A stretch of 64,000 nt of DNA from an uncultured bacterium (lineage in GTDB: Bacteria; Verrucomicrobiota; Kiritimatiellia; PWTM01), in assembly GCA_937935255.1 (NCBI GenBank), contig CALGXT010000076.1:1658-65657 (forward strand), read 5' to 3'. This document shows positions 86 through 21,600 of this stretch, one piece after another. The first letter of the stretch is position 1, and every line of letters starts with the position of its first letter. A program made the position numbers and the translations under genes. The notes beneath the pieces were generated by a model. It was not told the origin of the DNA. It ran no database searches and worked only from the letters and a program-made list of their open reading frames with translations.

Positions 86-138
86 TCGAGCGGCTCGTCC
101 GGAATCATTCTGCATTCCCGCGTCCTCTGCGCCGCACG

Positions 139-315: not shown

Positions 316-708
316 TTGAAAGAACCCCGTGACAGACCATCCCTGCGGCCGCGCGTGGAACAACCCCGCGCCGCGCGGCGGCGCGGACCCGCGGCGGCGA
401 CCTCGTGCCGACGCTGCGGCGCGTGCTGCCGGTGGGAAGGCCATGTGCTCGTTTCGGACGCCGACATTGCGCGTCTGGCCGCGCATCTGGCGATGGCCGA
501 AACCGATTTCATCGAGCGTTACTGCGCATTGGCGCGGAATCGGGCGCAGTTGACGCTGATCGAAAACGGCGAGGGCGCGTGCGTTTTTCTCGAGGGCCAT
601 GCGTGCCGCGTGTATCCCGTGCGGCCGGATCAGTGCCGCTCGTTTCCGGAGGGCTGGTCCGTCTCCGGCTGCCCCGCCGAAGCGGGCGGCGGGCCCAACG
701 GACGGTGA
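316..708 (+). CDS. YkgJ/UPF0153-family putative zinc- or iron-chelating protein (CxxCxxCC domain)
   Basis: A 130-aa ORF with a CRRCGACCR motif followed by FIERYC, CVFLEGHACRVYPVRPDQCRSFP. This cysteine pattern matches the YkgJ-type Fe-S/Zn binding domain. Confidence 0.6.
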   Translation: MKEPRDRPSLRPRVEQPRAARRRGPAAATSCRRCGACCRWEGHVLVSDADIARLAAHLAMAETDFIERYCALARNRAQLTLIENGEGACVFLEGHACRVYPVRPDQCRSFPEGWSVSGCPAEAGGGPNGR

Positions 709-3043: not shown

Positions 3044-3117
3044 GTCGGAGTTCCGATTTCGGCGGAAACGTTACGCCGTTTGCCGTCCGGTTGCACGCTC
3101 AATTGGCCGGCCGAACA

Positions 3118-4200: not shown

Positions 4201-4247
4201 GGCCGCTTTACCGAGCCGCTATAATGTTGAGCCGCGATAGCACAACC

Positions 4248-4952: not shown

Positions 4953-5205
4953 GGCACTCTCCCTTCGCGTACGATCGAACCCGCGCCCCACAGCGCACAT
5001 GATCCTTATCGTCCTAATTGGCCCCGCCCGCAAGCCGAAATTGCGGAGCGTTCAGCCTCCCCTGTCGCGCCGCGCCGGAATCGGTCTCCCTTGCCCATCG
5101 CCGCGCGCCGACCCACCGTCCGGGAGCGGCTCACTCTCCGCTAACAGAGGCCTCATCGAGCGCTAACTTGACCCCCCTTTCTTTCCGCCGATACGCTCGC
5201 CCGAC

Positions 5206-6264
5206 ATGCACAAGAGCGCCTTTTTACAAGTCGAGCGCGCGATGGTTTCCCTCGGCGGCGCGGCCGTACTGCGCGGCGTCGGCGTCGCGCTGGAACGCGG
5301 AAAATGTCTGGCGCTGCTGGGCCCGTCGGGCTGCGGGAAGACTACGCTGCTCAACGTGATCGCCGGTTTTTGCGCGCTTGACGAGGGCCGGTGCGTTTGC
5401 GACGGCGTCGTGCTGGACGATCCCGCCGAGCGCGCCTTCGTGCCCGTGCGCGCGCGCGGATTCGCGACCGTGTTCCAGGATTTCAGTCTCTGGCCCCATA
5501 TGACGGTCGCGGAGAATGTCCGGTTCGGATTGCGCGTGCGCGGCGCGCCGGAGAAGGAGAGCCGACGGCGCGCGCTCGACGCGCTGGAAAAAGTCCGCAT
5601 GGCGGATTATGCCGACCGCCGCCCCGCCGCCCTTTCCGGCGGCCAGCAACAGCGGGTGGCGATCGCGCGCGCCTTGGCCGTTCGTCCGAAATTATTGCTG
5701 ATGGACGAACCGCTCAGCGCCCTCGACGCGCGCCTGCGCGAGGAGCTGCGGGACGAAATCGCGCGGCTTTTGCGCGAGGAAGGCCAGACGGCGGTGTACG
5801 TGACCCACGATCAAGCCGAAGCCTTCGCGCTGGGCGACGCGGTCGGCGTGATGCGCGAGGGCCGCATCGAACAGCTCGACGCGCCGGAAGCGCTGTACCG
5901 CGCGCCGCGCACGCGATTCGTGGCCGAGTTCATCGGCTCGGCGAACGTGGCCGCCTTCACGCAGAGCGACGGCGCGCTGCGGATCGGCGCCCATTTGCGG
6001 CTGCCGGCCCGCCCCGATTGGCCCGCCGAGGGCTTCTGCTTCATCCGCCGCGAGAGCGTGCGCGCGCGCCCCGCCGGAACGGAAGCGCGGCCGCCGGCGA
6101 TCTGTTTTCAGCGGCGCTTTCTCGGTTCCCAGGTCGTGATTCGGGCCGGCTGGCGCGGCGATCTGGAACTCGACGGCGTGGCGGAGGGTCCGGTCGAAAT
6201 CGCCGGCCCCGTCGCGCTCGCGATAGATCCCAACGGCATGGGACTGCTTTCGGATTCGCCATGA
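5206..6264 (+). CDS. ABC transporter ATP-binding protein (FbpC/PotA-like, iron(III)-type importer ATPase)
   Basis: Walker A (GPSGCGKTT), ABC signature (LSGGQQQRVAIARAL) and Walker B (LLLMDEPLSALD) are all present. A C-terminal TOBE-like extension follows. Confidence 0.85.
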   Translation: MHKSAFLQVERAMVSLGGAAVLRGVGVALERGKCLALLGPSGCGKTTLLNVIAGFCALDEGRCVCDGVVLDDPAERAFVPVRARGFATVFQDFSLWPHMTVAENVRFGLRVRGAPEKESRRRALDALEKVRMADYADRRPAALSGGQQQRVAIARALAVRPKLLLMDEPLSALDARLREELRDEIARLLREEGQTAVYVTHDQAEAFALGDAVGVMREGRIEQLDAPEALYRAPRTRFVAEFIGSANVAAFTQSDGALRIGAHLRLPARPDWPAEGFCFIRRESVRARPAGTEARPPAICFQRRFLGSQVVIRAGWRGDLELDGVAEGPVEIAGPVALAIDPNGMGLLSDSP

Positions 6265-7283
6265 CGCGCGCCATCTTCCTGGCCCTGACGGCGGCGCTGA
6301 TCGGCTGCCGTTCCCGCGACGGCACGGACGCCGACCGGCTCGTCGTCTATTCCGCCGGCCCCCGTCCGTTGGCGGAAGCGATTTGCGCGGCCTTCACCCA
6401 GGCGACGGGGACGCCGGTGGACTTGTTCCAGGCGACCACGGGCCAGCTCATGGCGCGTCTCGAGGCCGAAAAATACCGTCCCCGCGCCGACATCGTGCTG
6501 TTCGCGAGCGAGATCGCCGCCGCCGCGCTCAAGCGGGAGGGACGGCTGCTCCGATTCCGGCCCGAGGCGGCCGAGCGCTTGCGCGCGGACTGGTCCGACC
6601 CCGACGAAACCTACTGGGCGTCCGGCGCGGCGCTCGTGGGCGTCGCCGTGCGCCGCGATTTTGCGGAGCGCGCGCCGCGGCGCTGGAGCGACTGGTTCGC
6701 CCTGGCGGATGCGCGCCGGATTGTGATGCCCTCGCCCTCGCGCTCGGGCGCAACCGGCGATTTCGTCGTCACCCTGGCGCTTCAATGGCCCGAAGAAACG
6801 TTCGCCGGTTTCGCGCGGCTGCGGCTCGCCGGCATGGATTTCGCCGCCGCCAACAGTCAGGCCATCGGAGGTCTGCAGATGGGCGCGCACGACGCGCTCA
6901 TCGGCGCGGTGGATTATTTGATTTATCAACAGATTGCGCGCGGCGAGCCGTTGGAGATGCTGTATCCCGAGGAAGGCGCGGTGCTCGTGACCCGTCCGAT
7001 CGCGATCCTGGCGGCGACCCCGCGCCCCGACGCCGCGAAGGCGTTTGTGGAGTTCTACCTGGCGCCCGAAAGTCAGCGGCGCGTCGCGGCGGCGCACCTG
7101 GCGCCGGCGCGCGCGGATGTCGCGCCCAGCCCGGCGCGGGGCGCGGAGCTGCCGCGCTGGATTCGCGCCGATCCGGTCGCGGCGGTGCTCCGCCAGGGAG
7201 CGATCCTGCGCCGCTTCCAACTCGATATCGAACGCGCGGCGTCCGCGCGGGCGCTGCGGCGCGCGGCGGGGGCGGCCCCATGA
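6261..7283 (+). CDS. ABC transporter periplasmic substrate-binding protein (Fe3+ FbpA/AfuA-like)
   Basis: The ORF starts MTRAIFLALTAALIGC, a lipoprotein-type signal with a Cys. Its ATG overlaps the ATPase stop (ATGA). The fold resembles class II iron-binding proteins, with motifs such as VVYSAGP and IVMPSPSRSGATG. Confidence 0.7.
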   Translation: MTRAIFLALTAALIGCRSRDGTDADRLVVYSAGPRPLAEAICAAFTQATGTPVDLFQATTGQLMARLEAEKYRPRADIVLFASEIAAAALKREGRLLRFRPEAAERLRADWSDPDETYWASGAALVGVAVRRDFAERAPRRWSDWFALADARRIVMPSPSRSGATGDFVVTLALQWPEETFAGFARLRLAGMDFAAANSQAIGGLQMGAHDALIGAVDYLIYQQIARGEPLEMLYPEEGAVLVTRPIAILAATPRPDAAKAFVEFYLAPESQRRVAAAHLAPARADVAPSPARGAELPRWIRADPVAAVLRQGAILRRFQLDIERAASARALRRAAGAAP

Positions 7284-8971
7284 CGCGCCGTCGAACCCGC
7301 GGAGAAACGGGGGCGCCGGGCGCCGCGAGCGTCAGCCTGGCGGTGGCGGCGCTCGCGATCGCCTGCGCGTACCCGCTGCTTTTGCTGTTCGTCCAAAGTC
7401 TGTTTCCCAACGCGCTCGGCGGCGAGTGGAGCGGCTTCCTTTCGCCCTACCGCCGGTTGTTTTCGACGCCCGATCTCGCGCGCATGCTGGGCCATTCGCT
7501 TTCGTGGGCCGCCGCAACCACGGCGGTCGCCTGGTTCTTCGGCATCCCCTGCGGCTTCCTGCTCGCGCGCTGCGCCCTCCCCGGCAAGGGTTTCGCGCGG
7601 CTGACGATGCTCGCGCCGCTGATGACGCCGCCCTACATCGCGGCGCTCTCGTACGTCGTTTTGCTGCAGCCGGGCGGGTTCGGCGACCGGCTGATCGGCG
7701 TGCCCGAGCCGTTGCGGGACTGGTTTTTTTCGTTCCACGGCGTCACGATGGCGATGGCGCTGGCGTCGTTCGGCTATGTGGCGCTCGGCGTCGAGGCCGC
7801 GTTGTTGCGGTTGCCGCCGCGGATGGAAGACGCCGCGCTGCAGCTCGGCGCCTCGCGGCCGCGGCTCTGGCGCTCGATTCTGATCCCGCTGCTGTTGCCG
7901 GCGATCCTGAACACCGGTCTGCTGGTGTTCCTGGACGCGCTGTCGAATTTCGGGGTGCCCGCCGTGCTCGGCACGCGCGCGAATCTCGCGCTGCTGCCCG
8001 CCGAGATTTATCACCTGCTCACGAGCTGGCCCGTGGATGTGCCGGTCGCCACGGCCCTCTCTTCCCTGCTCTGCCTGCTGGCCCTGCTCTCGCTCCGCAT
8101 CAGCGCGGCGCTCACGCGCGGAAGCGGGAGCGCCGGCGGCCGCGCCGCGGGCGGACGTCTCGTGAAATTGAGCCCGGCGCGCGCGGCGCTCGCATGGCTG
8201 TGGATCGGCGGACTTTTCGTCTTGAGCACCGCGCTGCCCTACGCCGCGATGATCGCGATGAGCCTCGTGGACCGCTGGACCGACGGCGCGCCCGCCTGGA
8301 CGCTTCGGCACTACGGCGCGCTGTTCCGTCCGGCGTCGGGCGGCCGCGCCGCGCTGCTGACGAGCCTCGGACTGGCGGCGGCGGCGGCGACCCTGTGCGC
8401 GGCGGGCGGCGGCTTTGTCGCCTATGTCGCCGCGCGCAGCGGACGGCTCGCGCGGCGCGCGATCGAAGCGCTCGCGATCCTGCCGCGCGCGCTGCCGAAG
8501 ATCGTGATGACCGTCGGCCTCATTCTCGCCTGGAACGCCCCCTGGGTGCGCGTGAACCTCTACGGAACGCTCGGCATGCTGCTGCTGGCCTACGTCGTGT
8601 GCTACATTTCCGACGCGCTCGCCTACGCCGGCGCGGCGCTGCGCCGCATGAATCCGCGTTTGGAAACCGCCGCGCTGCAGCTCGGCGCCGGACGCGTCGC
8701 CGTGCTCGCGCGGATCGTCGCGCCGCAACTCGGCCCCGCCCTCGCGGCGGCGTGGCTCACCACCTTTATCGTGTGCGTCCGCGAACTGGTCTGCTCGATT
8801 CTCCTGCTGCCGCCGGGCGTCGAAACCACCGCGACCTTCATTTTCAATCAGTTCGAACAGGGCGATCTGTCTTCCGCAATGGCCATGGCGACCGTGACCA
8901 TCGGCGTGACGGCGACGATCCTGTTTCTCTTGCAGCGAACGCCGCTCTTCCGAATGAAAGGAGACGTATGA
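7280..8971 (+). CDS. ABC transporter permease, fused two-domain (FbpB-like)
   Basis: A 563-aa ORF starting MTRRRTRGE, overlapping the binding-protein stop (ATGA). It has two repeated TM6 permease domains, each carrying an EAA-like loop (EDAALQLGASRPRLW and LETAALQLGAGRVAV). Confidence 0.85.
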   Translation: MTRRRTRGETGAPGAASVSLAVAALAIACAYPLLLLFVQSLFPNALGGEWSGFLSPYRRLFSTPDLARMLGHSLSWAAATTAVAWFFGIPCGFLLARCALPGKGFARLTMLAPLMTPPYIAALSYVVLLQPGGFGDRLIGVPEPLRDWFFSFHGVTMAMALASFGYVALGVEAALLRLPPRMEDAALQLGASRPRLWRSILIPLLLPAILNTGLLVFLDALSNFGVPAVLGTRANLALLPAEIYHLLTSWPVDVPVATALSSLLCLLALLSLRISAALTRGSGSAGGRAAGGRLVKLSPARAALAWLWIGGLFVLSTALPYAAMIAMSLVDRWTDGAPAWTLRHYGALFRPASGGRAALLTSLGLAAAAATLCAAGGGFVAYVAARSGRLARRAIEALAILPRALPKIVMTVGLILAWNAPWVRVNLYGTLGMLLLAYVVCYISDALAYAGAALRRMNPRLETAALQLGAGRVAVLARIVAPQLGPALAAAWLTTFIVCVRELVCSILLLPPGVETTATFIFNQFEQGDLSSAMAMATVTIGVTATILFLLQRTPLFRMKGDV

Positions 8972-10299
8972 CCCCTTCGCGCACCAAGGATGTGAATCGC
9001 GCCGCGCCCGCGTCCTGGCGGCGGCGGGCCGTCGCGCTGACGCTGTGGATGCTGTGCGGCCCGGCCTTTGCGGCGGCGCAGATTTTCTTCAGTTTCCGAG
9101 CCGCCGATGGCGGCGGTCTCGGACGGATCGAAGTGGACGCGCAAACCGGTGATTTCATCGCGCAGGAGGCGGTGTATTCCGCGGCGACCGCGCGCGCCGC
9201 GTTCAAGGTCGCCCAATCGCCGGAGGGGTATGCCGCGTTGACCGTCAACGAACGCGGGCCCGAAAATTTCGTCTTTCGCGCGCCCGACGGTCGCGTGCGG
9301 ACGCTGTCCCTCCCCGATAAACTCGATGAAGTCCGCCTTCACGGTCGGCGCGCCCTCGTCGGCGGCGAAGAGGGCGGCGTGTACCTCGTTCGGCTGGACA
9401 CCGGGGAACTCGAGCGCTCCTGGAAGCTCGCGGAAGCGCTTCATCCGCCGGGACGACGGCCGGAAGATCTCCGGATCGAGCGCGAGGGCCGCCGGGCCTG
9501 GGTGACGCTGCAAAAGGACAGCAAAAAAGGGGATCGCGAGGGCCAGCGCGTGGTGTATCTCGACTTGGACAGCGGAGCGGCGCTCGCCGATTTGCGGCTG
9601 CCGCGGGATCGCGCCGACCTGCATTACGGGCGGGACGGCGATTTCCGTCAGCGCGGTCCGGGGCCGGAAATCGTGATGCCCTTCGAGTCCGCCGGCGTCC
9701 TGCTCGTCACGCTCGATTTATACGGGGCGATCGGATTCGCCGATTTGACGGAGGCCCGTCAAGGGCGCCTGACGAACTGGACCGTCCTGCCCACGGCGCC
9801 GGATGGGAGCTGGGGCGCGGCCTTCCCCGATCGCGTAGCCGCGTTCGCCGCGGGCGGGCGCGAATTCGCGCTTGTCCTCAACGCCGGCGCGGCGGGCGGC
9901 GCGGCGGTCGCCGACGTGGCGAAGCGGAACATCGTGCAACGGTTGGCCGCGGGGCACGGTCTTTCCACGCCGGCGTTTGTTCCCGCCGCGCGCGCCGTCG
10001 TCGCCGCGAGCGGGGGCAAACTCAAGCGGCGGGGCGCCGAAGATGTGGAAAAAACCTTTCATCCTCGGGCTGAAATCGCGGTGTTCGATCTGACCGAGGA
10101 GGGCGGTCCGCTGGCGCTGCGCGTCGCGCCCACGGGCGATCCCGCGCATGCGCTGCGGCCCGTCGCTCCGGAATCGAGCGCGCTGATCCTGGTCAATGTC
10201 GGCGAATCGGCGGACGCCTGGCTGGTCATGGACATCCGCGACGGACGCATCCTCGGACGCCGCCCGGCGCTCGGGCGCGTGGAACGTCTGGCGCCGTAA
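8968..10299 (+). CDS. secreted hypothetical protein, translationally coupled to the iron ABC permease
   Basis: The ORF starts MTPSRTKDVNRAAPASWRRRAVALTLWMLCGPAFAAAQ, a signal peptide with a Tat-like RRR. Its ATG overlaps the permease stop. About 443 aa with no recognised domain. Confidence 0.55.
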   Translation: MTPSRTKDVNRAAPASWRRRAVALTLWMLCGPAFAAAQIFFSFRAADGGGLGRIEVDAQTGDFIAQEAVYSAATARAAFKVAQSPEGYAALTVNERGPENFVFRAPDGRVRTLSLPDKLDEVRLHGRRALVGGEEGGVYLVRLDTGELERSWKLAEALHPPGRRPEDLRIEREGRRAWVTLQKDSKKGDREGQRVVYLDLDSGAALADLRLPRDRADLHYGRDGDFRQRGPGPEIVMPFESAGVLLVTLDLYGAIGFADLTEARQGRLTNWTVLPTAPDGSWGAAFPDRVAAFAAGGREFALVLNAGAAGGAAVADVAKRNIVQRLAAGHGLSTPAFVPAARAVVAASGGKLKRRGAEDVEKTFHPRAEIAVFDLTEEGGPLALRVAPTGDPAHALRPVAPESSALILVNVGESADAWLVMDIRDGRILGRRPALGRVERLAP

Positions 10300-10688
10300 G
10301 GCGAGGATCGCGGCGGCGCGGAGATTCGCTTTTTCCCGGCGCCGCACAGGGAACGCGGGCGGCGGGGCGGCCAGAATCTTCGCGCCAGGCTCCGGCGTCG
10401 CGCAAAGACATCGCTCCCCCTCGCGGTGGTCGCGACGTCGCAGAGCGCCGCCCACCATCGTGTTTTTCGCGGTTTTTCCGCGGGCCGGCGCCTGAAGCGG
10501 CGAACGTCGGCCTTCGCGCTCGCGCGGCGGCGGCGTCGGACCTCGAACCCGCGCAAACGGAACGAGCGGATCTCTCGCCAGGCGCGCACGCGCGGCGATC
10601 CTCCGGGGCCGCCGCGCCGCCGCCCGCGCGCTTGCTCCGTGCGTTCGGCTGGTCTATCTTGGCGCTTTGTCACGGCGGGAGCGACATC

Positions 10689-13600
10689 ATGCTGGAGTCT
10701 GTTTCGAGCAAGGTGAGCTTTCCGGAGATGGAGCGCGAAGTGCTCCGTTTCTGGGAGGAGCGGGATATTTTCAAGAAATCGCTGGCGCAGCGCGAGGGCG
10801 CGCCGGAGTTCATTTTCTACGACGGCCCCCCGTTCGCCACCGGCCTGCCCCACTACGGCCATCTGCTCGCGGGCACGATCAAGGACATCGTCCCGCGCTA
10901 TCAGACGATGCGGGGCTTTCACGTCGAGCGGCGCTTCGGCTGGGATTGCCACGGATTGCCGATCGAGGCGCTGGCGCAAGAGGCGCTCGGGCTGGCGGGC
11001 GCCGGCGCGATCGTGGCCCGGGGCGTCGCCGCGTTCAACGAACAATGCCGCTCGATGGTGCTGCGCTATGTCGGCGAGTGGCGGAAGATCGTCGCGCGCA
11101 TGGGCCGCTGGGTGGACTTCGACAACGACTACAAGACCATGGACCTCACCTTCATGGAAACGGTGTGGTGGGTCTTCAAACAGCTCTGGGATCAGGGGCG
11201 CGTCTATCGCTCTTACCGCATCATGCCCTATAGTTGGAAGCTCAACACCCCGCTCTCCAACTTTGAGGCCGGATCGAACTATCAGGAGGTGCAGGACCCC
11301 TCGATCACGTGCCGACTGCGCGTGACCTCGGGCCCCGCCGCGGCCGGCGCGCCGTGGTATCTGCTGATCTGGACAACGACGCCCTGGACACTGCCGGCGA
11401 ACCTCGCCGTGTGCGTCGGGCCGGACATCGAATACGCCGCCGTACGCGACCGCGCCGACGGCAATGTCTACGTCCTCGCCGAGGCGCGGCTCTCGGCCTA
11501 TTACAAGAAACCGGAAGAATACGAGCGCGTCACCGCGTTCAAAGGGCGCGACCTCGTCGGCTGGCGCTACGAGCCGCTGTTCCCCTACTATGCCGATCGC
11601 GCCAACGCCTTCCGCGTGCTCGCCGACGATTTCGTCAGCACCGAGGACGGCGCCGGCATCGTGCATATCGCGCCGGCGTACGGCGAGGACGACTTCCGCG
11701 TCGGCCGCGCCGCCGGACTCGAACTCGCCGACCCGCTCGACGCGAACTGCGCGTTCACCGATCCGGTCGTCGAATACCGCGGCCAGTTCTGCAAGGACGC
11801 CGACAAGGCGATCGTCAAGCGGCTCAAGGCCGAGGGAAAGCTGGTCCATCAATCCACGATCGTTCACAGCTACCCCTTCTGCGAGCGCACCGACACGCCG
11901 CTCATTTACCGCGCCATCGAGGCGTGGTACGTCCGCGTCGAAGATTTGCGCGACCGCCTCGCGGCGGCGAACGCCGAGGCGCATTGGGTGCCGTCGTATG
12001 TCGGCGAAAAGCGTTTCGGCAACTGGCTGCGCGAGGCGCGCGACTGGAACATCAGCCGCAACCGCTTCTGGGGCTCATGCATCCCCGTCTGGATCGCCGA
12101 GGACGGCTCCGACCAAATTTGTGTCGGCTCGATCCGCGAACTGGAGGAGCTTTCGGGCCGCAAAGTGACCGACTTGCACAAGCACGTCGTGGACGAGATC
12201 ACGTTCGTTCGCAACGGCAAGACCTACCGCCGCACGCCGGAGGTCTTCGACTGCTGGTTCGAATCCGGCTCGATGCCCTATGCGCAGCACCATTACCCTT
12301 TCGAGCGCGGCGGGGAGCTCGATCGCATCTTCCCGGCGCATTTCATCGCCGAAGGGCTCGATCAGACGCGCGGCTGGTTCTACACGCTGCTCGTGCTTTC
12401 GGTCGCGCTGTTCGACCGCAGCGCCTACCGCAACGTGGTGGTCAACGGTCTCATTCTCGCCGCCGACGGGCGCAAGATGAGCAAGCGCCTGAAGAACTAC
12501 CCCGACCCGGCGCACATTCTCGAGACCTACGGCGCCGACGCGCTCCGCCTCTACATGATCCACTCGCCCGTCGTGCGCGCCGAGGACCTCTGTTTCACCG
12601 AAGACGGCGTGAAACACGCGCTGCGGCATTTGCTGATCCCGCTCTGGAACGCCTACGTCTTTTTCGTCACCTACGCGCGGGTGGACGGCTGGCGCCCCGG
12701 CCGCGCCGCCGCCGATGCCTCCGGCGCGGGCGCGCGCAGCGGCGACCTGCTCGACCGCTGGATTCGCAGCCGGCTCGACTGGCTCACCCAGACCGTCACC
12801 GCCGCGATGGACGCCTACGACCTGCAGGGCGCGGTGCGACCGTTCGTGGATTTCATTGACGACCTGACCAACTGGTACATCCGCCGCTCGCGCCGCCGGT
12901 TCTGGAAATCCACCGACGACGCCGACAAGGCCGCCGCGTACGCCACGCTCTACGAAGTGCTGCTGCGCCTCTCCAAGATCGCCGCGCCCTTCGTGCCTTT
13001 CGTGGCCGAGAAAATCTACGGCAATTTACGCGCGGACGATAGGCCCGAATCGGTCCACTTGTGCGATTTTCCCGCCGTTTCCGGCGCGGAGCGCGATCTC
13101 GAGCTCGAAGCGGAAATGGAAGCGGTGAAGACGGTCGTCGCGCTGGGACGGCAATTGCGCGTGCAACACGATCTCAAGGTGCGCCAGCCGCTCGCGCTGC
13201 TCCATATCGCCTCGCGCGACCGCGCGCTGCTCGCGCGGCTGGAGGCCGTGCAGGACCTCGTCGCCGACGAGCTGAACGTCAAGCGCGTGCGCTTCCTGGC
13301 GGACGAGTCGCACCTCGCCCGTTTCTCGGCCAAGCCGAATTTCCGCGTCCTCGGCCCGAAACTCGGCGGCGCCATGTCGCAGGCCGCCGCCGTGATCAAA
13401 AACCTCGACGCCGAGCACATCCTGCGGCTGCTCGACGGCGAGCGCGTCGCCATCGAAGTCGGCGGCAAGACCATCGAAATCGGCAGCGAGGAAGTGATCG
13501 TCGAGCGCACGCCGCGCGAGGGGCTCGCGGTCAGCGCCGAGGGCGGCATCGTCGTGGCGATGGAAACCGCGCTGACGCCGGCGCTGATCGCCGAGGGTCT

Positions 13601-13844
13601 CGCGCGCGAAGCGGTCAACCGCATCCAAAACCAGCGCAAGACGGCGGATTTGGACGTCGCGCAGCGCATCCGCTTGCGGTTCACGGGCGACGACGCCGTG
13701 CGCGCGGCCTTCGAGAAGCATGCCGACTACATTTGCGCGGAGACGCTGTGCGTCGGCTGGGAATGGGCGACCGCGCTGGATAAACCCGACTGGTTCGGCG
13801 ACCTCAACGGCCATCCGGCGGCGTTCACGTTGACGCCGGAGTGA
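10689..13844 (+). CDS. ileS: isoleucine--tRNA ligase
   Basis: Class I HIGH motif (PHYGHLLAGTIKD) and KMSKS motif (KMSKRL) are present. Length is about 1050 aa. Family characteristic sequences include WTTTPWTLPAN and the editing domain. The probable start is MLESVSSKVSFPEM. Confidence 0.95.
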   Translation: MLESVSSKVSFPEMEREVLRFWEERDIFKKSLAQREGAPEFIFYDGPPFATGLPHYGHLLAGTIKDIVPRYQTMRGFHVERRFGWDCHGLPIEALAQEALGLAGAGAIVARGVAAFNEQCRSMVLRYVGEWRKIVARMGRWVDFDNDYKTMDLTFMETVWWVFKQLWDQGRVYRSYRIMPYSWKLNTPLSNFEAGSNYQEVQDPSITCRLRVTSGPAAAGAPWYLLIWTTTPWTLPANLAVCVGPDIEYAAVRDRADGNVYVLAEARLSAYYKKPEEYERVTAFKGRDLVGWRYEPLFPYYADRANAFRVLADDFVSTEDGAGIVHIAPAYGEDDFRVGRAAGLELADPLDANCAFTDPVVEYRGQFCKDADKAIVKRLKAEGKLVHQSTIVHSYPFCERTDTPLIYRAIEAWYVRVEDLRDRLAAANAEAHWVPSYVGEKRFGNWLREARDWNISRNRFWGSCIPVWIAEDGSDQICVGSIRELEELSGRKVTDLHKHVVDEITFVRNGKTYRRTPEVFDCWFESGSMPYAQHHYPFERGGELDRIFPAHFIAEGLDQTRGWFYTLLVLSVALFDRSAYRNVVVNGLILAADGRKMSKRLKNYPDPAHILETYGADALRLYMIHSPVVRAEDLCFTEDGVKHALRHLLIPLWNAYVFFVTYARVDGWRPGRAAADASGAGARSGDLLDRWIRSRLDWLTQTVTAAMDAYDLQGAVRPFVDFIDDLTNWYIRRSRRRFWKSTDDADKAAAYATLYEVLLRLSKIAAPFVPFVAEKIYGNLRADDRPESVHLCDFPAVSGAERDLELEAEMEAVKTVVALGRQLRVQHDLKVRQPLALLHIASRDRALLARLEAVQDLVADELNVKRVRFLADESHLARFSAKPNFRVLGPKLGGAMSQAAAVIKNLDAEHILRLLDGERVAIEVGGKTIEIGSEEVIVERTPREGLAVSAEGGIVVAMETALTPALIAEGLAREAVNRIQNQRKTADLDVAQRIRLRFTGDDAVRAAFEKHADYICAETLCVGWEWATALDKPDWFGDLNGHPAAFTLTPE

Positions 13845-13848
13845 GCGA

Positions 13849-13899
13849 TTTTCCAAGGGTTGGAAGTAAACCCGCCACAGTTTTCCAAGCCTTGGAAAC
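13849..13899. repeat. pair of palindromic repeats TTTTCCAAGGGTTGGAAG / TTTTCCAAGCCTTGGAAAC (locus B of a four-locus family)
   Basis: Read directly from the sequence, immediately after the ileS stop. Each copy has 6-8 bp inverted arms around a 3-nt centre; the spacer between copies is 14 nt. Confidence 0.8.
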
Positions 13900-14123
13900 G
13901 CCGATCGCGTCAAAGCCGCCGGACGACGCCGGCACGCGGCGCGTCGGCGCCGAACCCTAAATCCACGGCTTGCGACCGCGCTTCCGAAAGCAGCGGGCGG
14001 CACCGCGGATGATCGGAATGCCGCTCGATTTGCGGGCGCGAGAGCGCCCGGAACGCCCCCGCTGTCGGCGGAAACGGTTCGCGGTTTTCGCGGGCGACGG
14101 GCCGAGGGCGGCGGGATCGGTCA

Positions 14124-14153
14124 GGGACAATTCCACGCCGTTGTTCGCATAAT
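14124..14153 (+). promoter_or_regulatory. putative sigma70-like promoter upstream of the ECF sigma operon
   Basis: GGGACA (-35-like) and CATAAT (-10-like) are separated by 18 nt, about 125 nt upstream of the sigma factor start. This is a weak, purely sequence-based call. Confidence 0.2.
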
Positions 14154-14279
14154 CTCCATTTCCCGATTCGTCTTGCTCCGCCGCGGCGGGCGCGGCATGC
14201 TGCCGGGCGTTTCATCGTCAAATCAAAATATTTCCTCCCCCCTTTCGTTTATAAGGCGAATGGAGCGGGCGGAGATGCA

Positions 14280-14858
14280 ATGGCCGAGATGCAACCGATC
14301 GAACGGGAATGGCTCGAGCAATATCGCCGGGGCGACCTGGAAGCGCTCGGAAAGCTTGTGGAGCAGTATCGCCGCCCGCTGTTCTCGTTCATTCTCAAGA
14401 TGACCGAAGGCCGGGGCGATCCGGAAGAGGTCTTTCAGGAAACGTGGATTCGGGCCATTCGGAATCTGGACCGCTTCGATGACCAGAATCTTCTCGGTTG
14501 GCTTTTCCGCATCGCCCATAACCTGGTGATTGACCGGGCGCGCAAGTTGCGTCCGGAGGTGCGGCCGGAGCTGCGCACCGGCCAGTCGGCGACGACGTGG
14601 TTCGATCAGGTGCCGGGCGGCGGCGCAGGACCGGCGACGGTGGCCGCGGACAACGACCTGGGGAAACGGATTTCCGCGGCGGTCGAGCGCCTGCCCCCGG
14701 AGCAGCGGGAAGTGTTCCTGTTGCGCATGGACAGCGACATGTCGTTCAAGGACATCGCGAAGGTGCAGGGCGTTTCGATCAATACGGCCCTCGCGCGGAT
14801 GCATTATGCGGTGCGCAAGCTGCGCGAGATGTTGAAAGACACGTACGAGAAATTATGA
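14280..14858 (+). CDS. RNA polymerase sigma-70 factor, ECF subfamily
   Basis: Sigma region 2 (LVEQYRRPLFSFILKMT, ETWIRAIRNLDRFD) and sigma region 4 HTH (LPPEQREVFLLRMDSDMSFKDIAKVQGVSINTALARM) are present. Length is 192 aa. Confidence 0.85.
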   Translation: MAEMQPIEREWLEQYRRGDLEALGKLVEQYRRPLFSFILKMTEGRGDPEEVFQETWIRAIRNLDRFDDQNLLGWLFRIAHNLVIDRARKLRPEVRPELRTGQSATTWFDQVPGGGAGPATVAADNDLGKRISAAVERLPPEQREVFLLRMDSDMSFKDIAKVQGVSINTALARMHYAVRKLREMLKDTYEKL

Positions 14859-14871
14859 ATCGAGGTTCACC

Positions 14872-15429
14872 ATGAACTGCAAAAGGGCGCGAACCTGGCT
14901 GCTGCTGGCGGAAACCGGCGAATTGACGCCGGAGCGGCGCCGGCGGCTCGAGGAGCACATCGCGGCTTGCGCGGCGTGCGAACGCTATGCGGCGTCGCTG
15001 CGCGCGCTGCGCGGCGAGTATTCGACGGAAGCCCCGCCGCACACGGCGACGCCGCCGCCCACACTGAACGCGATTTTGCTCGCGGCCCGCGAGACCGTCG
15101 TGCAGCCGGCGCCGAAGCGGCGGAGCGTGTGGTTCGCGGACTGGACGTTGGCCGAGCGCGCGCTCGCCGCCGCCGCGGTGCTATTGGCGGCGCTCGGGCT
15201 GACCGTATTGCTGTCGCGCGCGCCCCGCCGCGCCGCCGTCGTCGCGCTGGATAACGCGCTGATCGAGCGGCAAGTGGCGGCGGCCGTCGAGGCGATGGAG
15301 GCGGACTGGACCGCCTGGGAAGGCGAAATGGCCCTCGTGGCGCTCGAATTCGGCGACTGGTACCTGCTCGCCGGCGACGCCGCGGACGAGCCGGCCATCG
15401 CGCCGGCAGTTTTCGAGGTGGGCATATGA
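14872..15429 (+). CDS. anti-sigma factor, zf-HC2 type, membrane-anchored
   Basis: An HxxxCxxC motif (HIAACAACERY) lies near the N-terminus. A central hydrophobic helix (LAAAAVLLAALGLTVLL) is present. The gene sits 14 nt after the sigma factor. Confidence 0.7.
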   Translation: MNCKRARTWLLLAETGELTPERRRRLEEHIAACAACERYAASLRALRGEYSTEAPPHTATPPPTLNAILLAARETVVQPAPKRRSVWFADWTLAERALAAAAVLLAALGLTVLLSRAPRRAAVVALDNALIERQVAAAVEAMEADWTAWEGEMALVALEFGDWYLLAGDAADEPAIAPAVFEVGI

Positions 15430-16178
15430 AAACGCAACACGGAATTTTGACCCTGTGCGTCGCCTCTCTTTTCGCGGCGGCGATTCGCGCGGATGATGCG
15501 ACCGGCGATCCGCCGGCGCGGACGACGGACGACGAAGCGCCGCCGATAGCGATCGCCGCTCCACCGACGTCTCCGTTGGAATCGGGGCGGCGCGTCGGTC
15601 CCCCGCCGCGGCCCTTCGGCCCGCCGTCGGAATCGGACTTCAAAGAAGGCGCAGTGCTGCGCTGGCTGGATCGTCTGCGCGAGGCCCATCCGGAGGAGTT
15701 CGCGCGGATGCGGCATCTGCGCGAGACGCAGCCGGAAAAATTCCGGGAGGAGATGCGCCGCCGCATCCAGCGGCGTCTGCTGATCGAAGAAGGCGGATCG
15801 CCGTTCGCGAAGGCCGAGGAAGGCGGACCGCGTCGGGAAGCCAAACCCCCGCCCCGGCTGGAACGCGATCCCGAAATGGAACGGCTGGAGCGCGAATTGG
15901 TCGCGCTGGTGCGCGAGTTTCATTCGACCGATGCGCCGGAGCGCCGCGAGGAGATTCAGCGCCGCATCCGCAACCTGATCCGGGAAGCGATGGAGCGGCG
16001 CGAGGCGGTCTGGGCCGCTCGGGTGCGGCAGATGCGCCGGGAGTTGACGGATCTCGAGGAACGGCTGGATCGCTGGCGTGAAAATCGCGATGCAACGATC
16101 GAGCAGCGGCTCCAGATGATGCTGGAGAAAACGCCCCAACCGCCGCCGGAGCCGCCGCCCCCGCCGCCGGCCGCTTGA
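15426..16178 (+). CDS. periplasmic coiled-coil protein with proline-rich C-terminus (Spy/CpxP-like envelope stress protein candidate)
   Basis: The ORF starts MKTQHGILTLCVASLFAAAIRA, a signal peptide. Its ATG overlaps the anti-sigma stop (ATGA). The central region is rich in charged coiled-coil residues, and the C-terminus is PQPPPEPPPPPPAA. Confidence 0.55.
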   Translation: MKTQHGILTLCVASLFAAAIRADDATGDPPARTTDDEAPPIAIAAPPTSPLESGRRVGPPPRPFGPPSESDFKEGAVLRWLDRLREAHPEEFARMRHLRETQPEKFREEMRRRIQRRLLIEEGGSPFAKAEEGGPRREAKPPPRLERDPEMERLERELVALVREFHSTDAPERREEIQRRIRNLIREAMERREAVWAARVRQMRRELTDLEERLDRWRENRDATIEQRLQMMLEKTPQPPPEPPPPPPAA

Positions 16179-16241
16179 GGCGTGCGCATTGATCGGCGAC
16201 TGTCGTCTTGGAGAATCGAAGTTCACTTCCGGAATGCCGTG

Positions 16242-18635
16242 TCACACGGGTTTTCCCATCGTAACCCGCACCGTGTGGCGGGGCGCCGTGGGCAAGGGCA
16301 GCTTGTTGCCGTGAATTCGACATCCGTCGAGGCGTAATTCCTTCACACCGGTTTCGACGCCGTCCGGATTCTCGAAGCGGATTTCGTACTCGCTGCCGCG
16401 GAATCGGCGATGCAGCGAAAACACTTTCCAAACAGGGTCCACGGCGGGCGCAATTCGAAGGCCGTCCATTTCCGCCCGTACGCCGATGATATAATCGGTC
16501 ATGGCCCGGAACATCCACGCCGCCGTTCCGGTCAGCCAATGGAAAGCGCCCTCGCCGAACCGGTCGCCCGCGCCCGGCCCGGCGCAGTATTGCGAATAAA
16601 CATAGGGCTCGACGGCGTATTGGCGCGCATCGCGTTGGAACGGCAAAATCTTTCGATATAGGGCCACGGCTTCCCGCCCTCGTCCGAGCAGTGCGCGCGC
16701 CACCACATGGAACGCGCTGACGTGGGAAAACACAGCGCCATTTTCTTTCCGACCCGGCAGAAACGCTGAAATGAGACCGACGCTGGGGTCATACACGGTG
16801 TACGCCGGCGCGAGGTTGGTCATGCCAAAAGGCGTCTCCAGACGCCGGGCGGCCGCGTCCATACAGACATTCAGCCGCGATTTATCCGATATTCCCGCCA
16901 TCACCGCCCACGTTTGGGAATTAATCCAGATGCAGCCTTCCTGCTCGCCCTTTACCCCGAGGGGGCGGCCATCGTCGCGAAAAGCGCGCACGAACCATTC
17001 GCCGTCCCAGCAAAATTCGTTCATGATCCGCCGAAGTTCCTCGGCGCGCGCGCGGTAGCGTTGCAGCCTAGAATCGGCGCCCCAGCCTTCCAGCAACGGC
17101 GCGATTTCCCCGATTGCGTAGCATAGAAACTGGGCCAGCCAGACGCTTTCGCCCCGACCCGCGGCGCCCACGCGATTGGCGGCGTCGTTCCAATCGCCTT
17201 TCCCCATCAGTGGTAGCCCGTGTGGACCGCGCTGCTCCAGCAGGCGTTCCATGCCGGTCAGCATGACTTCGTAGACGGTCGAATCGGTTCCATCCATGAG
17301 AGAAACCGACATGTCGAGCAAATCCATATCTCCGGTTTCGCGCAGGTAGTCCGCTACCGCCAGCACGAACCAGAGCGGGAGATCCACCTTGGGCGACGGG
17401 CCTTCGGGCAGACCCGCGCGGTTGCAGCCCCCGCACGCCTGCCCGTCCGCGAAGAAGAAGCCGGCGATGCGGAGCAGATTCCGTTTGGCCAGGTCCGGCG
17501 CCAGCGGGGTGACGCCGAACGCATCCTGGCAACTGTCGCGCATCGCCGGATACTGGCCCTTGTGAAAGTAACTCGGTCCGCGGCCGAAATGGAAATTGAC
17601 CATCAATTGGAGCTTGTTCCACGTGTTCGTCATCCGGTCGAGATCCGGCTCGGGCGTCCGCACCGTCAGTGGCGCGAAAAGCGAGCGCCAGTGCGCGCGC
17701 GTCGCCTCCCAGGCCGGCTCGACGAACGCCGGATCGCGCAATCGGGCCGCCAGCGGTTCGGGATCGGCGTCGCGCGGCTGGATCGCGATCGCCACGTGAT
17801 TGTTCCAGCGGGCGCCGGGCGCCAGTGCCACCCGCCACTGGAAGACGGCCGCCAGATGCTGTCCCTGGGTCGGCGCCTCCGGCAGCCATTCGGACTCCAG
17901 TCCGGCCGGCGCGTCCAGATGCCGCATCGCCCCGATAAACGCATTGCGATCGGCTACGATTCGCTCCGGCGGCGCGGCGCTCACGACCAGCGCCTGGCGC
18001 GGCCAGACCTGGTTGTGCTCCGACCAGCCGTCTTCGGTGAACCAGAAGTTATGCTGTGCCAGCAGGCCATCCGCGCGCAGGGTCACGTCATGAAACAGGC
18101 TGTGGAAGGCCGTCTCGTGTTCGTAGAGCGAGATGTTGCCGAGCGAGAAGAACGCGCAGGTATAAATCGAGAGGCGGCGCGGGCGGCCGCTGGAATTCGC
18201 CAGCCCGAGACCCCAGATTTCCGCGTCGAGGTCCGGGGGCACGAAAAACCGCAGCTCCGCGTCCACGCCGCCGTAGGAGGATCGGATCGCCGTCGTGCCC
18301 GGCGCATGCCGCGCTTCGAACCGGTCGAACTTCCCGATCGGATGCGCATTCGCCGTCCAGACCTCGCCGGTTTCCTCGTCCTTCACGTAAACGATCCGCC
18401 CCGGCAGGTCGTCGTTCGCCTGGTGCAGCCCGCGCTGGAGAATGCCGTGCAGCCGGTGATCGACGTGAAAGCTGAACCCGCCGCCGACGTGCGAACATAG
18501 CGCGCAATAATCGCCGTTGGTCAGATAATTGATCCAAGGCCTCGGCGGACGCGGCGTCGTGACAACGTACTCGCGGCCATCTTCGGAAAAATGTCCGAAG
18601 GGGTTATCCGCGAAACATTCTCCACCCGGCGTCAT
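16242..18635 (-). CDS. GH94 family glycoside phosphorylase (cellobiose/chitobiose/beta-glucan phosphorylase-like)
   Basis: The N-terminus (MTPGGECFADNPFGHFSEDGREYVVTTPRPPRPWINYLTN) matches the GH94 N-terminal domain. The catalytic (alpha/alpha)6 region contains the conserved GH94 stretches GKGDWNDAAN and VWLAQFL. Length is about 800 aa. Confidence 0.85.
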   Translation of the reverse strand: MTPGGECFADNPFGHFSEDGREYVVTTPRPPRPWINYLTNGDYCALCSHVGGGFSFHVDHRLHGILQRGLHQANDDLPGRIVYVKDEETGEVWTANAHPIGKFDRFEARHAPGTTAIRSSYGGVDAELRFFVPPDLDAEIWGLGLANSSGRPRRLSIYTCAFFSLGNISLYEHETAFHSLFHDVTLRADGLLAQHNFWFTEDGWSEHNQVWPRQALVVSAAPPERIVADRNAFIGAMRHLDAPAGLESEWLPEAPTQGQHLAAVFQWRVALAPGARWNNHVAIAIQPRDADPEPLAARLRDPAFVEPAWEATRAHWRSLFAPLTVRTPEPDLDRMTNTWNKLQLMVNFHFGRGPSYFHKGQYPAMRDSCQDAFGVTPLAPDLAKRNLLRIAGFFFADGQACGGCNRAGLPEGPSPKVDLPLWFVLAVADYLRETGDMDLLDMSVSLMDGTDSTVYEVMLTGMERLLEQRGPHGLPLMGKGDWNDAANRVGAAGRGESVWLAQFLCYAIGEIAPLLEGWGADSRLQRYRARAEELRRIMNEFCWDGEWFVRAFRDDGRPLGVKGEQEGCIWINSQTWAVMAGISDKSRLNVCMDAAARRLETPFGMTNLAPAYTVYDPSVGLISAFLPGRKENGAVFSHVSAFHVVARALLGRGREAVALYRKILPFQRDARQYAVEPYVYSQYCAGPGAGDRFGEGAFHWLTGTAAWMFRAMTDYIIGVRAEMDGLRIAPAVDPVWKVFSLHRRFRGSEYEIRFENPDGVETGVKELRLDGCRIHGNKLPLPTAPRHTVRVTMGKPV

Positions 18636-18637
18636 AT

Positions 18638-21600
18638 TCACGGCTCGAATGAAAACTCCAAGTCGTTCGACCAATGTTCCGCCCAATCCACCTGAAAGGC
18701 GAAGGGGCTGCGCAGCGAGACGCTGCGCCGGCGCGCCAGTTCCAGGGTCGGCCCGCCGCCTCGATAATTGACGCGATAACTGAACTTGACCGACCGGCCC
18801 TCGTCCACCGCCGCCTTGACCGCCGGCATTTCCGCCCAGGGAATCGCCGCCTCGGTGATGCGTAGGCCGTCGCGATACACCGTGATCATCTTCGCGCCTT
18901 CCACGGGGCCTTCGTTCGGCGCTTTCGGCTGCCGGGGGTAGAAATGCTTGCGCGGCAGCGTGGGATGCGTGAGCCGCCAGACCTCGAAGCCGCCGCCGAA
19001 TTCCGGCGCCACGTGGTTCAGCGCGTACTCGTGATCGGTGCAGACCACCGGGATGAGCCGCTCCGGACTGCCGGGCAGCTTCGAAATGGAACTGCTGGGG
19101 CCCTGCTGGTCGGGCGGCAGCACGTTGAATGCAATCTGCACGTTGTCGAAGTCCGGGCTGCGGTTCCCGGCCGGCAGAATCGGATCCCTACGGTAGGTGA
19201 AACGGCGTACGCCCTCGGGCCATCGCATGGCCGCCAAACCGTCGTCGCGTGGCGCGGCCGCGGCGCCCGCCCACGGCAACGCCGGCCACGCCGCATAATC
19301 AATAACGGCATCCACGCGCGTCAAACGGGGGGCGCCGTCCAGACCGGTCCCGGCGAAGAACTCGGCTTTCAAGCCCGGCGCCTCGCCCGCTTCCGCGGCG
19401 AACAGCGCCTCCGCCGGCACCGTCATCCGCTCCCCGCCCGGCTCGATCCACTGGAACTGGGCCACGGCGCCGCCGCCGCCCTGAAAGTACTCGATGCGAA
19501 TCGGCATTCTCTTCCCGGCGGTCAGTTCGACTTCGACCTTCGAATCGGCCGGCGCGCGCCCCGACCAGTCGTTGATGACCTGCCGCCCGTCCAGCCACAG
19601 ACGCACTCCATCGTCCGTCCGTAGAATCAAGGTGTGCGGGCCGGTCGCGCGAGCCTGCAGGAAGCCGCTCCAGCGGGCGCTGAAATTTTCCGCGCCACCC
19701 TGCCCCTGCTGCGACGGGCCCACCTTTCGATACGAGATCTCCGGATAGAAAAACTGGTCGTCGTCGCGTTCGGCGAAACGCAGCGTGCCGGGATCGGGCG
19801 TGGCGTCGCTGATGCGCGCGGCGAAGTAGAAGTACTCGTCGTCGTAGGCCAGCCACGCGGTCGCGAATCCGCTCCGTCCCTCCGGGGCGAACTTCGCAAA
19901 GGGCAGCCACGCCTCCTCGGTGAGCGTCCGCGTGGCCGCGCCGGCGCCCGAGACCGCCTGCGGTATTGCGCCGCGCCAGTCGTCCAGTTGGCCGTCGATG
20001 CGGACGGTGCGGCGGACCACGCGATTTACGTGGAGCGCTTCGCGATGCACGGCCACCCCCCGATCGCCGGCGTCGAACACGAGCGACAGGGGATAGGTGT
20101 TGTCCGCCCGGGCAGCGCCCTTCACCGGAATATCGAGCCGCAGCGTCTCGCGCGGTTCCAGGCGGATGCGCGCCGGCGCCTCCGCTTGCAAGCCTTCGAT
20201 CGTCAGGCGCAACGCGCCTTCGATCGGCTGGTTGTGATGGCTGGTCAACTCCAGGCGAAGCACCGCTCCATCTTCGACCGGTTGCAGGAAGTCACGGGCG
20301 ACGATGTGGATCGGCGCCAGGCCTTCGACCCGCGCGGCGCGGAGGGCGGCGAGCAGCGCCTCGAACGATTCGGCCTTGCCGTCGGTGGCGCGCAGGAAGA
20401 AGCCGCGGTGATCGAGCGGAACGACAATCGAACCGTCCGCCGAAGGCGGCAGCCGGTTGCCGGTGAAATCGAACATGGCGAAGGGCGCATCCATGGCGGA
20501 CACAACAAGTTTCGCATCGCGATACGGCCCGCGCTCGGCCAGGCGATTCTCGATCTCGGCCTTGCGCTCCGGGGTCTCCGCGCGATTCAATTCCGAAAGG
20601 AGCTCCAGGCGCGCCCGGCTCCCGGCCAGGTCGGGGGTCTCGCCCCACAAATGCCCCCGCCCGAACAGCGCATCCAGATCGCCCAGCACCACGACCGTTC
20701 CGTCGCCGGCGTTGCCGTCGTATCCGTCGAACACGAATACCCAGGGCAGGCCACGCTCGAACAACACCTCGCGAAACGGGCGGTCGCCAATGAAATGCTG
20801 GACTGCGCCGACCGATGCGGCCAGCGGGAACGCCTGCAACGGGGCGGCGATCTGCTCGCGGCCGCGATCGCTCCAAACCTCCGCGCGGCGAACGCGCCCG
20901 TGACTCAGCACATCCACCACATTGCCGCCATATACACCCATCGCCCGGTCGTAACCCGCGGCGCGATTCGCGGCCACGACGGCCGCATAGCGGTCGTCCG
21001 TGTTGGCGACCCAGGATTCGGTGTCGAAGATGAGCACGCGGCCCTCGCGATTCTTGCGCTCGCGCCACATCTTGAAATGGGCCGGCGAATGCATGCCCTG
21101 ATAGTGGATCGAACAGAAGTCGAGATATTCCAGAAACTCGTCGCTGCCGTCGGGGAAAAACTTGTCCCAGGTGTTGGTGGAGGAGTCCGCTCCGCCGACG
21201 AGCACCTGCACGCCGAATTCCTTCTCGGCCTCGTGGACCGCCTCGGCCATCGCGCGATAGATCTCGCGGTAGCGGATCATATCCGCCTGCCAGCCGCTGA
21301 TGCTCGACCCCTCCCACGGTTCATTCCACAGCATCACGCCGGTGATCGGGCCCTTGGGCCAGCCGAACGCGCCGACCAGCTTCTTCACCTCCGCCTTGAA
21401 GTCCGCGTCCAGTTCCGGCAGCCAGACGTGATCCATTTTACCTTCGAGCATGACGCCGTCGGCGTCGAGGTGCGGCCGCGGGCGATCCAGCGGCTGCGGC
21501 GCGCCCCCCGCGCCGAATTCGGCCAGCACGGTGACGTTGCGCTCGTGCAGCGCGCGCAGCTCGCTCTCGTATCGGGCCAGCAGTCCGCGCCGCGATGAAT

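Follow-up and report, generated by a model that had tools for sequence, protein, structure and literature searches.

Iterated sequence motifs such as the repetitive extragenic palindromic (REP) elements, the DNA uptake sequences (DUS) of Neisseria and the uptake signal sequences (USS) of the Pasteurellaceae, the highly iterated palindrome HIP1, Chi and matS have each opened a part of chromosome biology. REPs are specific to a species or genus. A different kind of regularity is known from the operators of tetrameric regulators, including NrdR boxes which lie 31-32 bp apart, the regulatory and activation binding sites (RBS/ABS) of LysR-type proteins, NtrC enhancer sites at 32 bp and ArgR boxes at ~21 bp. 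The paired palindrome TTCCAA-N3-TTGGAA described here occurs in a 64 kb stretch of DNA (the window) from an uncultured bacterium of the Kiritimatiellia (contig CALGXT010000076.1, positions 1,658 to 65,657 of the forward strand). It combines the geometry of tandem operators with the genomic behaviour of REPs, or bacterial interspersed mosaic elements (BIMEs), of HIP1 and of uptake sequences, and both are found together in no single known family. No description of the motif, of its dialects or of Kiritimatiellia repeats or palindromes was found in the literature searched.

The window holds eight copies of the palindrome arranged as four paired sites, none of which is assigned to a strand:
139-155, no strand: site 1, palindrome 1, TTTCCAACCCTTGGAAG, exact core at 140-154
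169-188, no strand: site 1, palindrome 2, TTTTTCCAAAGCTTGGAAAA, 32 bp from palindrome 1
13849-13867, no strand: site 2, palindrome 1, TTTTCCAAGGGTTGGAAG, 4 nt past the ileS stop codon (13842-13844), kept in the orthologous locus L117
13881-13899, no strand: site 2, palindrome 2, TTTTCCAAGCCTTGGAAAC, 32 bp from palindrome 1, kept in L117 with one mismatch (T10 to C)
40961-40978, no strand: site 3, palindrome 1, CTTCCAACCCTTGGAAAA, 53 nt past the accD stop codon (40908)
40990-41009, no strand: site 3, palindrome 2, TTTTCCAAGCCTTGGAAAC, 31 bp from palindrome 1
59141-59161, no strand: site 4, palindrome 1, TTTTTTCCAAGGCTTGGAAGA, core and centre triplet the same in locus L218
59173-59195, no strand: site 4, palindrome 2, TTTTCCAAACCTTGGAAAAA, 32 bp from palindrome 1, core and centre triplet the same in L218

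The eight exact copies of TTCCAANNNTTGGAA start at positions 140, 172, 13851, 13883, 40962, 40993, 59145 and 59177, against 0.04 copies expected from 100 dinucleotide shuffles, none of which reached eight. The four sites and their paired palindromes, first noticed in an initial annotation of the window, are thus borne out, as are the centre triplets that it gave for sites 1 to 4 (CCC/AGC, GGG/GCC, CCC/GCC and GGC/ACC). Start-to-start spacing within the four pairs is 32, 32, 31 and 32 bp. A relaxed search of the window with a 13-nt core and up to two mismatches returned no one-mismatch copies, and two-mismatch matches near chance, and the motif is therefore all-or-none in the window. The hexamers TTCCAA and TTGGAA occur 37 times, where ~11 would be expected by an estimate from base composition; 16 of them lie within the palindromes and the remaining 21 are at most about twofold over chance. 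The unit is the palindrome and not the isolated hexamer. Absence of sequence conservation outside the palindrome core had been named by the initial annotation as an argument against a common element. When the four loci are aligned, only the palindromes and their register are common, and the 13-17 nt spacers and the flanks are unrelated.

The genome-wide pattern search proposed by the initial annotation, with spacing, orientation and gene position tabulated, was extended to a collection of one genome per species (185,579 species). The query consisted of two copies with a free gap of 6-36 nt, which admits start-to-start spacings of 21-51 bp and specifies 24 bases, estimated to give less than one chance match across the collection. 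The pair recurs in at least 116 tiles (L001-L116) from at least 47 metagenome-assembled genomes (MAGs), nearly all of which are labelled Kiritimatiellia, Lentisphaerae or Verrucomicrobia; the tiles are the matches listed, and the figures for distribution and density are lower bounds. The identical 12-base core is present throughout the bearer tiles, the GC content of which ranges from 44 to 73%, and housekeeping orthologues between bearer MAGs are 41-58% identical. At the DNA level the window has no matches to the 116 tiles, and matches at the protein level are few. For the ROK kinase of the window the closest named proteins come from Kiritimatiellia or Verrucomicrobia at ~60-65% identity. The distribution was also tested on 80 metagenomic loci anchored on IleS and chosen without regard to the motif. 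Among these the motif is present in one, the closest relative (90% identity), and the other 79 (~440 kb) contain no copy even when one mismatch is allowed. Two Kiritimatiellia-labelled contigs (42 kb) and five further ROK-anchored loci likewise have no copies. Where the motif does occur, its density is 1 per 3-16 kb.

The spacing between copies is quantised in steps of ~10.5 bp, the helical repeat of B-DNA, and three turns are strongly preferred. Below 52 bp there are 191 successive spacings, and every one is of 21-22 bp (15), 30-33 bp (166) or 42-44 bp (10); longer gaps extend the series to 53, 62-64 and 73-74 bp. Several pairs at 42-43 bp have no degenerate middle copy, and mixed arrays, for example 22+31+31+31+22, hold every site in phase. 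Among 44 apparent singletons, 19 have a partner with up to two mismatches, always at 31, 32 or 41 bp; true singles make up ~12% of clusters, and pairs or arrays the other 88%. The spacers themselves are unrelated between copies, even within one genome (listings of 92 pairs). With two-fold symmetric sites, whole-turn spacing and a free spacer, the pairs have the properties of cooperative tandem sites on double-stranded DNA, and the lock on helical turns supports same-face binding by a pair of dimers.

The extended site reads aaawT-TTCCAA-K-S-M-TTGGAA-Awttt, and its flanks mirror each other as A-tracts and T-tracts. Of 392 copies, 388 have G or C at the centre (201 G, 187 C), and positions 7 and 9 tend toward complementarity, a feature of no use to a hairpin whose loop is 1 nt long. 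Position 7 is genome-specific: one MAG has T in 153 of 154 half-sites, and G predominates in the window and in several other MAGs. The initial annotation had described the copies as sharing the same orientation; as a general property this falls away, because, the centre base aside, a palindrome has no polarity, and none appears consistently in the wider data. When clusters are oriented by the gene ending upstream, there is likewise no strand polarity and no downstream T-enrichment or U-tract. A higher-order dyad symmetry, in which the centre is G in one palindrome and C in the other, gives a signal that is weak and spacing-dependent. Counted by mismatch, 393 copies are perfect, 83 have one mismatch and 43 have two, compared with 0.2, 1 and 16 in shuffles. 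Mismatches spare the CC/GG core and concentrate at the outermost and innermost positions of the arms. The innermost arm position yields the commonest variant, T10 to C (mirror A6 to G), which is found in both copies of a decaying pair in locus L220 (5216-5262) and in the second copy after ileS in L117 (1421-1435). One-mismatch copies are uncompensated, and transitions that are G·U-compatible and those that form C·A number 11 each.

The reading which we favour, with moderate confidence, is that these are paired double-stranded DNA binding sites for one dimeric protein that binds cooperatively on the same face and is probably architectural. From the anatomy, phasing, symmetry, distribution and evolutionary footprints of the sites we infer the binding of a protein, its oligomeric state and its architectural role. 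Each palindrome would be the site of a sequence-specific, two-fold-symmetric (dimeric) protein on double-stranded DNA. Two or more dimers, bound cooperatively to the same helical face, would make up a dimer of dimers or, on arrays of up to six sites, a longer oligomer. The same-face requirement would set the centre-to-centre distance at two, three (strongly preferred) or four turns and leave the sequence of the spacer free. The protein would be present in a patchy and deeply divergent set of Kiritimatiellia-like bacteria and would co-evolve with its sites, giving rise to the dialects at position 7. Its role may be nucleoid-associated or IHF-like bending, bridging or wrapping, or the organisation of the chromosome. 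Local tandem duplication, together with point substitution in place, might be the source of new pairs. An architectural role is likelier than control of a regulon because the neighbours of the sites are unrelated and because sites occur in all contexts, in genes and in phage, and turn over between lineages.

Comparison of orthologous loci shows which parts of a site persist. After ileS, both palindromes and the 32-bp register persist between the window and L117 (90% IleS identity); one centre base has changed, one copy carries T10 to C, and divergence extends over the spacer and flanks and even into the ileS C-terminus. Upstream of the ROK kinase, the palindromes of the window and of L218 (68% protein identity) are identical including the centre triplets GGC and ACC, in an unchanged register. 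The start codon lies 36 nt away in L218 and 33 nt away in the window, and the remainder has diverged, with a sulfatase in place of acnA as the upstream neighbour. The synteny of acnA and ROK is not conserved in most relatives, and L218 alone is informative. L220 (69% identity) has no ROK pair and holds the decaying pair in a convergent spacer. The ileS and ROK footprints suggest that selection may act on site and register and not on the spacer. Coincidences of position between MAGs number ~6 against ~10 expected by chance on a rough estimate, and are not evidence either way. In the case of AroB the positions proved to differ, the pair being intragenic in one MAG and directly past the stop codon in another.

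Two routes to new sites are indicated. The intragenic AroB pair arose in place without insertion, its FQCLE aligning to FEWQE or FDWLE in solved structures. In a MurF-like gene, alignment to solved structures reveals ~22 additional residues between two FQTLE copies. Pairs with the same centre are enriched at 31 bp (62 versus 28, p = 4e-4) and the spacers within arrays are residually similar, those of locus L034 sharing a ttttcag motif, which suggests growth by tandem duplication. Tile L006 contains two neighbouring Mur-ligase genes (1179-2585 and 3918-5324), each with an in-frame insert between palindromes that encode FQxLE. The inserts share a GC-rich spacer, CCGGCTGAGCCGGGGCTTGCTGNAAAC, with 42 or 66 nt between copies, and it looks as if a unit of palindrome, spacer and palindrome had spread locally into coding DNA.

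Gene contexts in the tiles were assigned with a self-trained, codon-usage gene caller that recovers the Pfam-verified genes of the window. The 191 clusters comprise 89 in co-directional spacers (1.56 per kb of spacer), 20 in convergent spacers (1.7 per kb), 18 in divergent spacers (0.73 per kb), 42 inside genes and 22 at tile edges. An adjacent stop codon lies less than 40 nt away in 73 of 138 distances, distances to start codons are broad, and some convergent spacers hold little besides the cluster. The intragenic share is ~22% (42/191 as called); most of these cases are genuine, and some near the 5' ends of genes are mis-called start codons. Nine of the ten host genes checked were confirmed by Pfam as conserved enzymes, namely a Mur ligase, MnmE, SufBD, AroB, an ArgH-like lyase, a sulfatase, a GDSL lipase, GreA and a kinase-FGE fusion. 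The palindromes within genes are translated in frame as FQxLE, SKxWK or PNxGK and retain the 31-32 bp register in pairs. The 95 proteins flanking the sites belong to 117 Pfam families, of which the top 25 are listed in the tally; each occurs at most twice, with no common theme and no recurrent transposase in the tally. Among 780 tile proteins there is no recurring family beyond generic ones.

The motif is also carried by at least one phage. A scan of viral sequences matched 16 contigs, and one genuine phage (IMGVR_UViG_3300035698_006241; L208 650-767, L204 3420-3505) has ~8 canonical palindromes in 19 kb together with genes for a large terminase, portal, head protease, major head protein and DNA methyltransferase. 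A four-copy array with steps of 31, 31 and 41 bp stands upstream of its terminase genes, with a textbook terminator behind it; because of this order, the array is not itself the terminator. Five further viral contigs (L199, L201, L202, L206 and L210) match in form only, with A/T centres and spacings of 28, 36, 41 or 45 bp, and L210 has six repeats of an extended unit, TTCCAAACTTTGGAACTCCGT. These repeats are probably phage-specific operator arrays outside the motif family.

Several observations weigh against a cooperative architectural protein. The near all-or-none mismatch spectrum and the creation of sites in place inside essential genes are unusual for ordinary protein-binding sites and resemble molecular drive. 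Presence among relatives is patchy, which would be unexpected for a core nucleoid protein, and no candidate for the binding protein recurs near the sites, either among the 95 flanking or among the 780 tile proteins. The bias towards stop codons and convergent spacers resembles that of REP elements, and every copy is self-complementary, so that a hairpin or cruciform is energetically available. Finally, the context statistics rest on a home-made gene caller which misplaces some start codons.

The strongest rival is a molecular drive like that of USS/DUS or HIP1, in which biased uptake and recombination, repair or gene conversion would keep making and restoring perfect copies, without local function, wherever the genome tolerates them. 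Perfect copies outnumber one-mismatch copies by ~5 to 1, and copies and whole pairs arise in place in essential genes in all three reading frames. Dialects are homogeneous in each genome, lineages are patchy, positions turn over, phage have copies, and enrichment is seen where it would be least harmful, that is in convergent spacers and past stop codons. Drive alone, however, leaves the pairing at whole helical turns unexplained. The density of the motif is also well below the ~1 per kb of known uptake sequences, and the pair upstream of ROK has been held in place, centre triplets included, at 68% protein identity. As a full account drive is considered unlikely, and it would be compatible with paired binding sites if its agent were the same DNA-binding protein.

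Less probable again is a REP/BIME-like hairpin, formed in single-stranded DNA or RNA, that spreads with the help of a REP-associated tyrosine transposase (RAYT; IS200/IS605-like) or stabilises mRNA 3' ends. High-copy, mostly extragenic palindromes in pairs and arrays, with 73 of 138 stop-codon distances below 40 nt and their highest density in convergent spacers, would suit such an element, as would the one MAG with in-frame insertions and a common spacer in two Mur-ligase genes. A single long hairpin can moreover form from a pair, at -23.5 to -33 kcal/mol; z is about -4.2 to -4.7 at three window sites, and the fold is not significant at site 1. The folding follows from the self-complementarity of the repeats, and is unsupported by the data on variation. 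The initial annotation had proposed both a genome-wide REP/BIME-like element and RNA hairpins. The motif is indeed dispersed genome-wide and even across many genomes, but it differs from a strict REP/BIME, as spacers and flanks are unrelated even within one genome, leaving no similarity over the whole element. No recurrent transposase or RAYT-like neighbour appears in the tally of the top 25 Pfam families of the flanking proteins, and no transposase family recurs among the 780 tile proteins. The 12-base core is common to genomes with 41-58% housekeeping identity and is thus not specific to a species or genus, pairs made in place within coding sequence are not strictly extragenic, and hairpins need not obey the quantisation by helical turns. 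The RNA hairpins are foldable but lack any sign of strand asymmetry or polarity, of a U-tract, or of variation that is compensatory or biased to G·U, and the whole window has no Rfam match at gathering score; structured RNA is thus indicated neither by a covariance-model match nor by compensatory changes.

It is improbable that the pairs are operators of a global transcription factor for carbon, iron or redox, bound as a tetramer and controlling the adjacent genes. Two palindromes three turns apart is generally known as the geometry of NrdR, LysR-type and NtrC-type sites. Start codons are 30-33 nt away from two of the four window sites, both in divergent promoter regions, and the pair upstream of ROK keeps its position and start-codon distance in L218. 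The six copies of an array in L034 (338-508) repeat strictly every 31 bp, and the array stops ~20 nt short of the start codon of a purM-like gene, which the gene caller had missed. For the initial annotation, which had offered the operator of a global dimeric protein bound as a pair of dimers, the pair of dimers is in keeping with the helical phasing. The regulon is not, since the neighbours are unrelated, with 117 Pfam families in 95 flanking proteins, each present at most twice and without a theme. The depletion from divergent promoter regions (0.73 per kb, the lowest density, against 1.7 in convergent spacers, the highest) argues against a regulon as well. In addition, 42 of the 191 clusters are called inside genes and the motif is essentially invariant and not graded.

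Canonical transcription signals are scarce in this group. At the gene ends in the tiles, canonical intrinsic terminators number 39 of 570 in sense versus 29 of 570 in antisense, and in the window (1-20000) there are 21 versus 19.7 in shuffles; this near-absence implies that some alternative mechanism of termination must exist. The transcription signals of the clade appear to be non-canonical. Sigma-70-like promoters are at background (3 versus 2.2). A promoter of sigma-70 or extracytoplasmic function (ECF) type, TTGGAA-N16-17-TTCCAA, was considered and rejected, as it would use the inner arms only and leave the palindromes and the 21-22 and 42-43 bp classes unaccounted for. That the pairs themselves are transcription terminators or structures of the 3' untranslated region, acting intrinsically or as a roadblock with bound protein, is very improbable despite the stop codons nearby and the shortage of canonical terminators, as pairs lie inside essential genes (MurF, MnmE, AroB, SufBD and the ArgH-like lyase) and directly upstream of start codons, accompany a minority of gene ends only, and have AT-rich stems in place of the GC-rich stem and 3' U-tract of an intrinsic terminator, with no polarity and no Rfam match. 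No terminator-like site was found at the 13849-13899 locus. An arrangement hinted at by two viral contigs, in which the pair lies between a stop codon and a canonical terminator, was set aside, being present in only 2 of 80 cases.

The neighbourhoods of the four window sites are diverse. The genes on either side of site 1 diverge, and the site is ~30 nt upstream of one on the minus strand (start near 109) and ~130-170 nt upstream of a CxxCxxCC (YkgJ-like) gene at 316/355-708; the initial annotation was right to place it upstream of the latter, and the minus-strand gene ~30 nt away is to be added. Sites 2 and 3 had both been put directly after stop codons, which is accurate for ileS (4 nt) and not for accD, since site 3 is 53 nt past its stop. 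An ECF sigma/anti-sigma pair lies ~380 nt downstream of site 2, the sigma gene starting at 14280. Site 3 occupies the convergent spacer between accD and a GT4 glycosyltransferase gene, which is on the minus strand and ends at 41241. Site 4 is confirmed in the divergent region between acnA (minus strand, start near 59054-59069) and the ROK kinase gene, with palindrome 2 ending 33 nt ahead of the likely ROK start at 59225.

The ROK kinase gene (59162-60202) was recorded as 346 aa (P0001), with a start codon inside the palindrome pair. The ATG at 59225 is the likelier start because homologues have 320-328 aa. Across such AT-rich clusters, genes appear to be called too long at the 5' end, and in L008 the called N-terminus reads FQTLE..PNIGK..SKHWK ahead of a signal peptide. 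Elsewhere in the window (630-708), the YkgJ-like open reading frame (plus strand, to 708) and that of a family-2 glycosyltransferase (minus strand, from 630) overlap convergently by ~78 nt, and one end of this overlap is probably misassigned.

To return to paired sites for a dimeric protein, it is conceivable, if rather doubtful, that they belong to a previously undescribed sequence-specific system of chromosome architecture in Kiritimatiellia-like bacteria, an analogue of an insulator or loop-anchor code. If true, an abundant tetrameric or filament-forming protein would read a near-invariant 17-bp palindrome and would need two or more sites on one helical face. Its imprint on the genome would be strong enough to place sites within essential coding sequences, phages would copy them, and there would be no counterpart in a known family. 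The bearers are barely studied degraders of polysaccharides which are relevant to the environment and the gut. The informative anatomy, with an invariant core, whole-turn spacing, dialects and in-frame copies, makes the partner protein directly findable. In metagenomes the motif is a practical marker of the bearer lineages and their phages, and it explains the systematic mis-annotation of start codons beside the sites.

In its comparison with described systems the motif resembles each of them in part. Like the REPs and BIMEs of enterobacteria and pseudomonads, among them the IHF-binding BIME-1/RIP subclass, it is a high-copy extragenic palindrome that is paired or clustered and found past stop codons and in convergent spacers, and BIMEs dock architectural proteins (IHF, gyrase), a role akin to the one favoured for the motif. 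Unlike them, only a perfect palindrome of 15-17 bp is conserved, there are no linker motifs, spacing is locked to the helical turn, and genic copies are in frame. With HIP1 (GCGATCGC) of cyanobacteria it shares an iterated palindrome in a patchy lineage, copies in coding and non-coding DNA, positions that turn over and a dominance of perfect copies, which are far above near-misses in both kinds of DNA across the lineage. HIP1, however, is 8 bp long, unpaired, present at ~1 per kb and linked to a methyltransferase site, whereas the motif is 15-23 bp, forms helically phased pairs, is strongly enriched between genes and is much rarer. The DUS of Neisseria and USS of the Pasteurellaceae are likewise lineage-wide, with dialects, a dominance of perfect copies, occurrence in several reading frames and many copies downstream of genes, but they are asymmetric 9-12-mers at ~1 per kb with no fixed pair spacing, in all of which the motif differs. 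We know of no competence in Kiritimatiellia.

Sites read by dedicated dimeric proteins, namely the Noc-binding sites (NBS), SlmA-binding sites (SBS), matS of MatP and parS of ParB, are palindromes of 12-16 bp which, like the motif, are scattered, independent of their neighbours and often genic. They occur singly, at tens per genome, and are distributed characteristically between origin and terminus, in contrast to the phased pairs or arrays of the motif and its copy number, which appears much higher. The tandem operators of tetrameric regulators have the same arrangement of two palindromes of ~15-17 bp set two or three whole turns apart with a free spacer. They differ in occurring at one or a few promoters per genome within a coherent regulon, whereas the motif has apparently hundreds of near-perfect copies per genome, in every context and beside unrelated neighbours. 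To our knowledge, its sequence fits no consensus of a tandem regulator. Resemblances to the 7-1-7 box of the Fur family (through the AAT-n-ATT core of the T dialect), to the IHF consensus (CAA-N4-TTG, as against CAA-N3-TTG in the motif) and to the T-N11-A box of LysR-type proteins are leads only.

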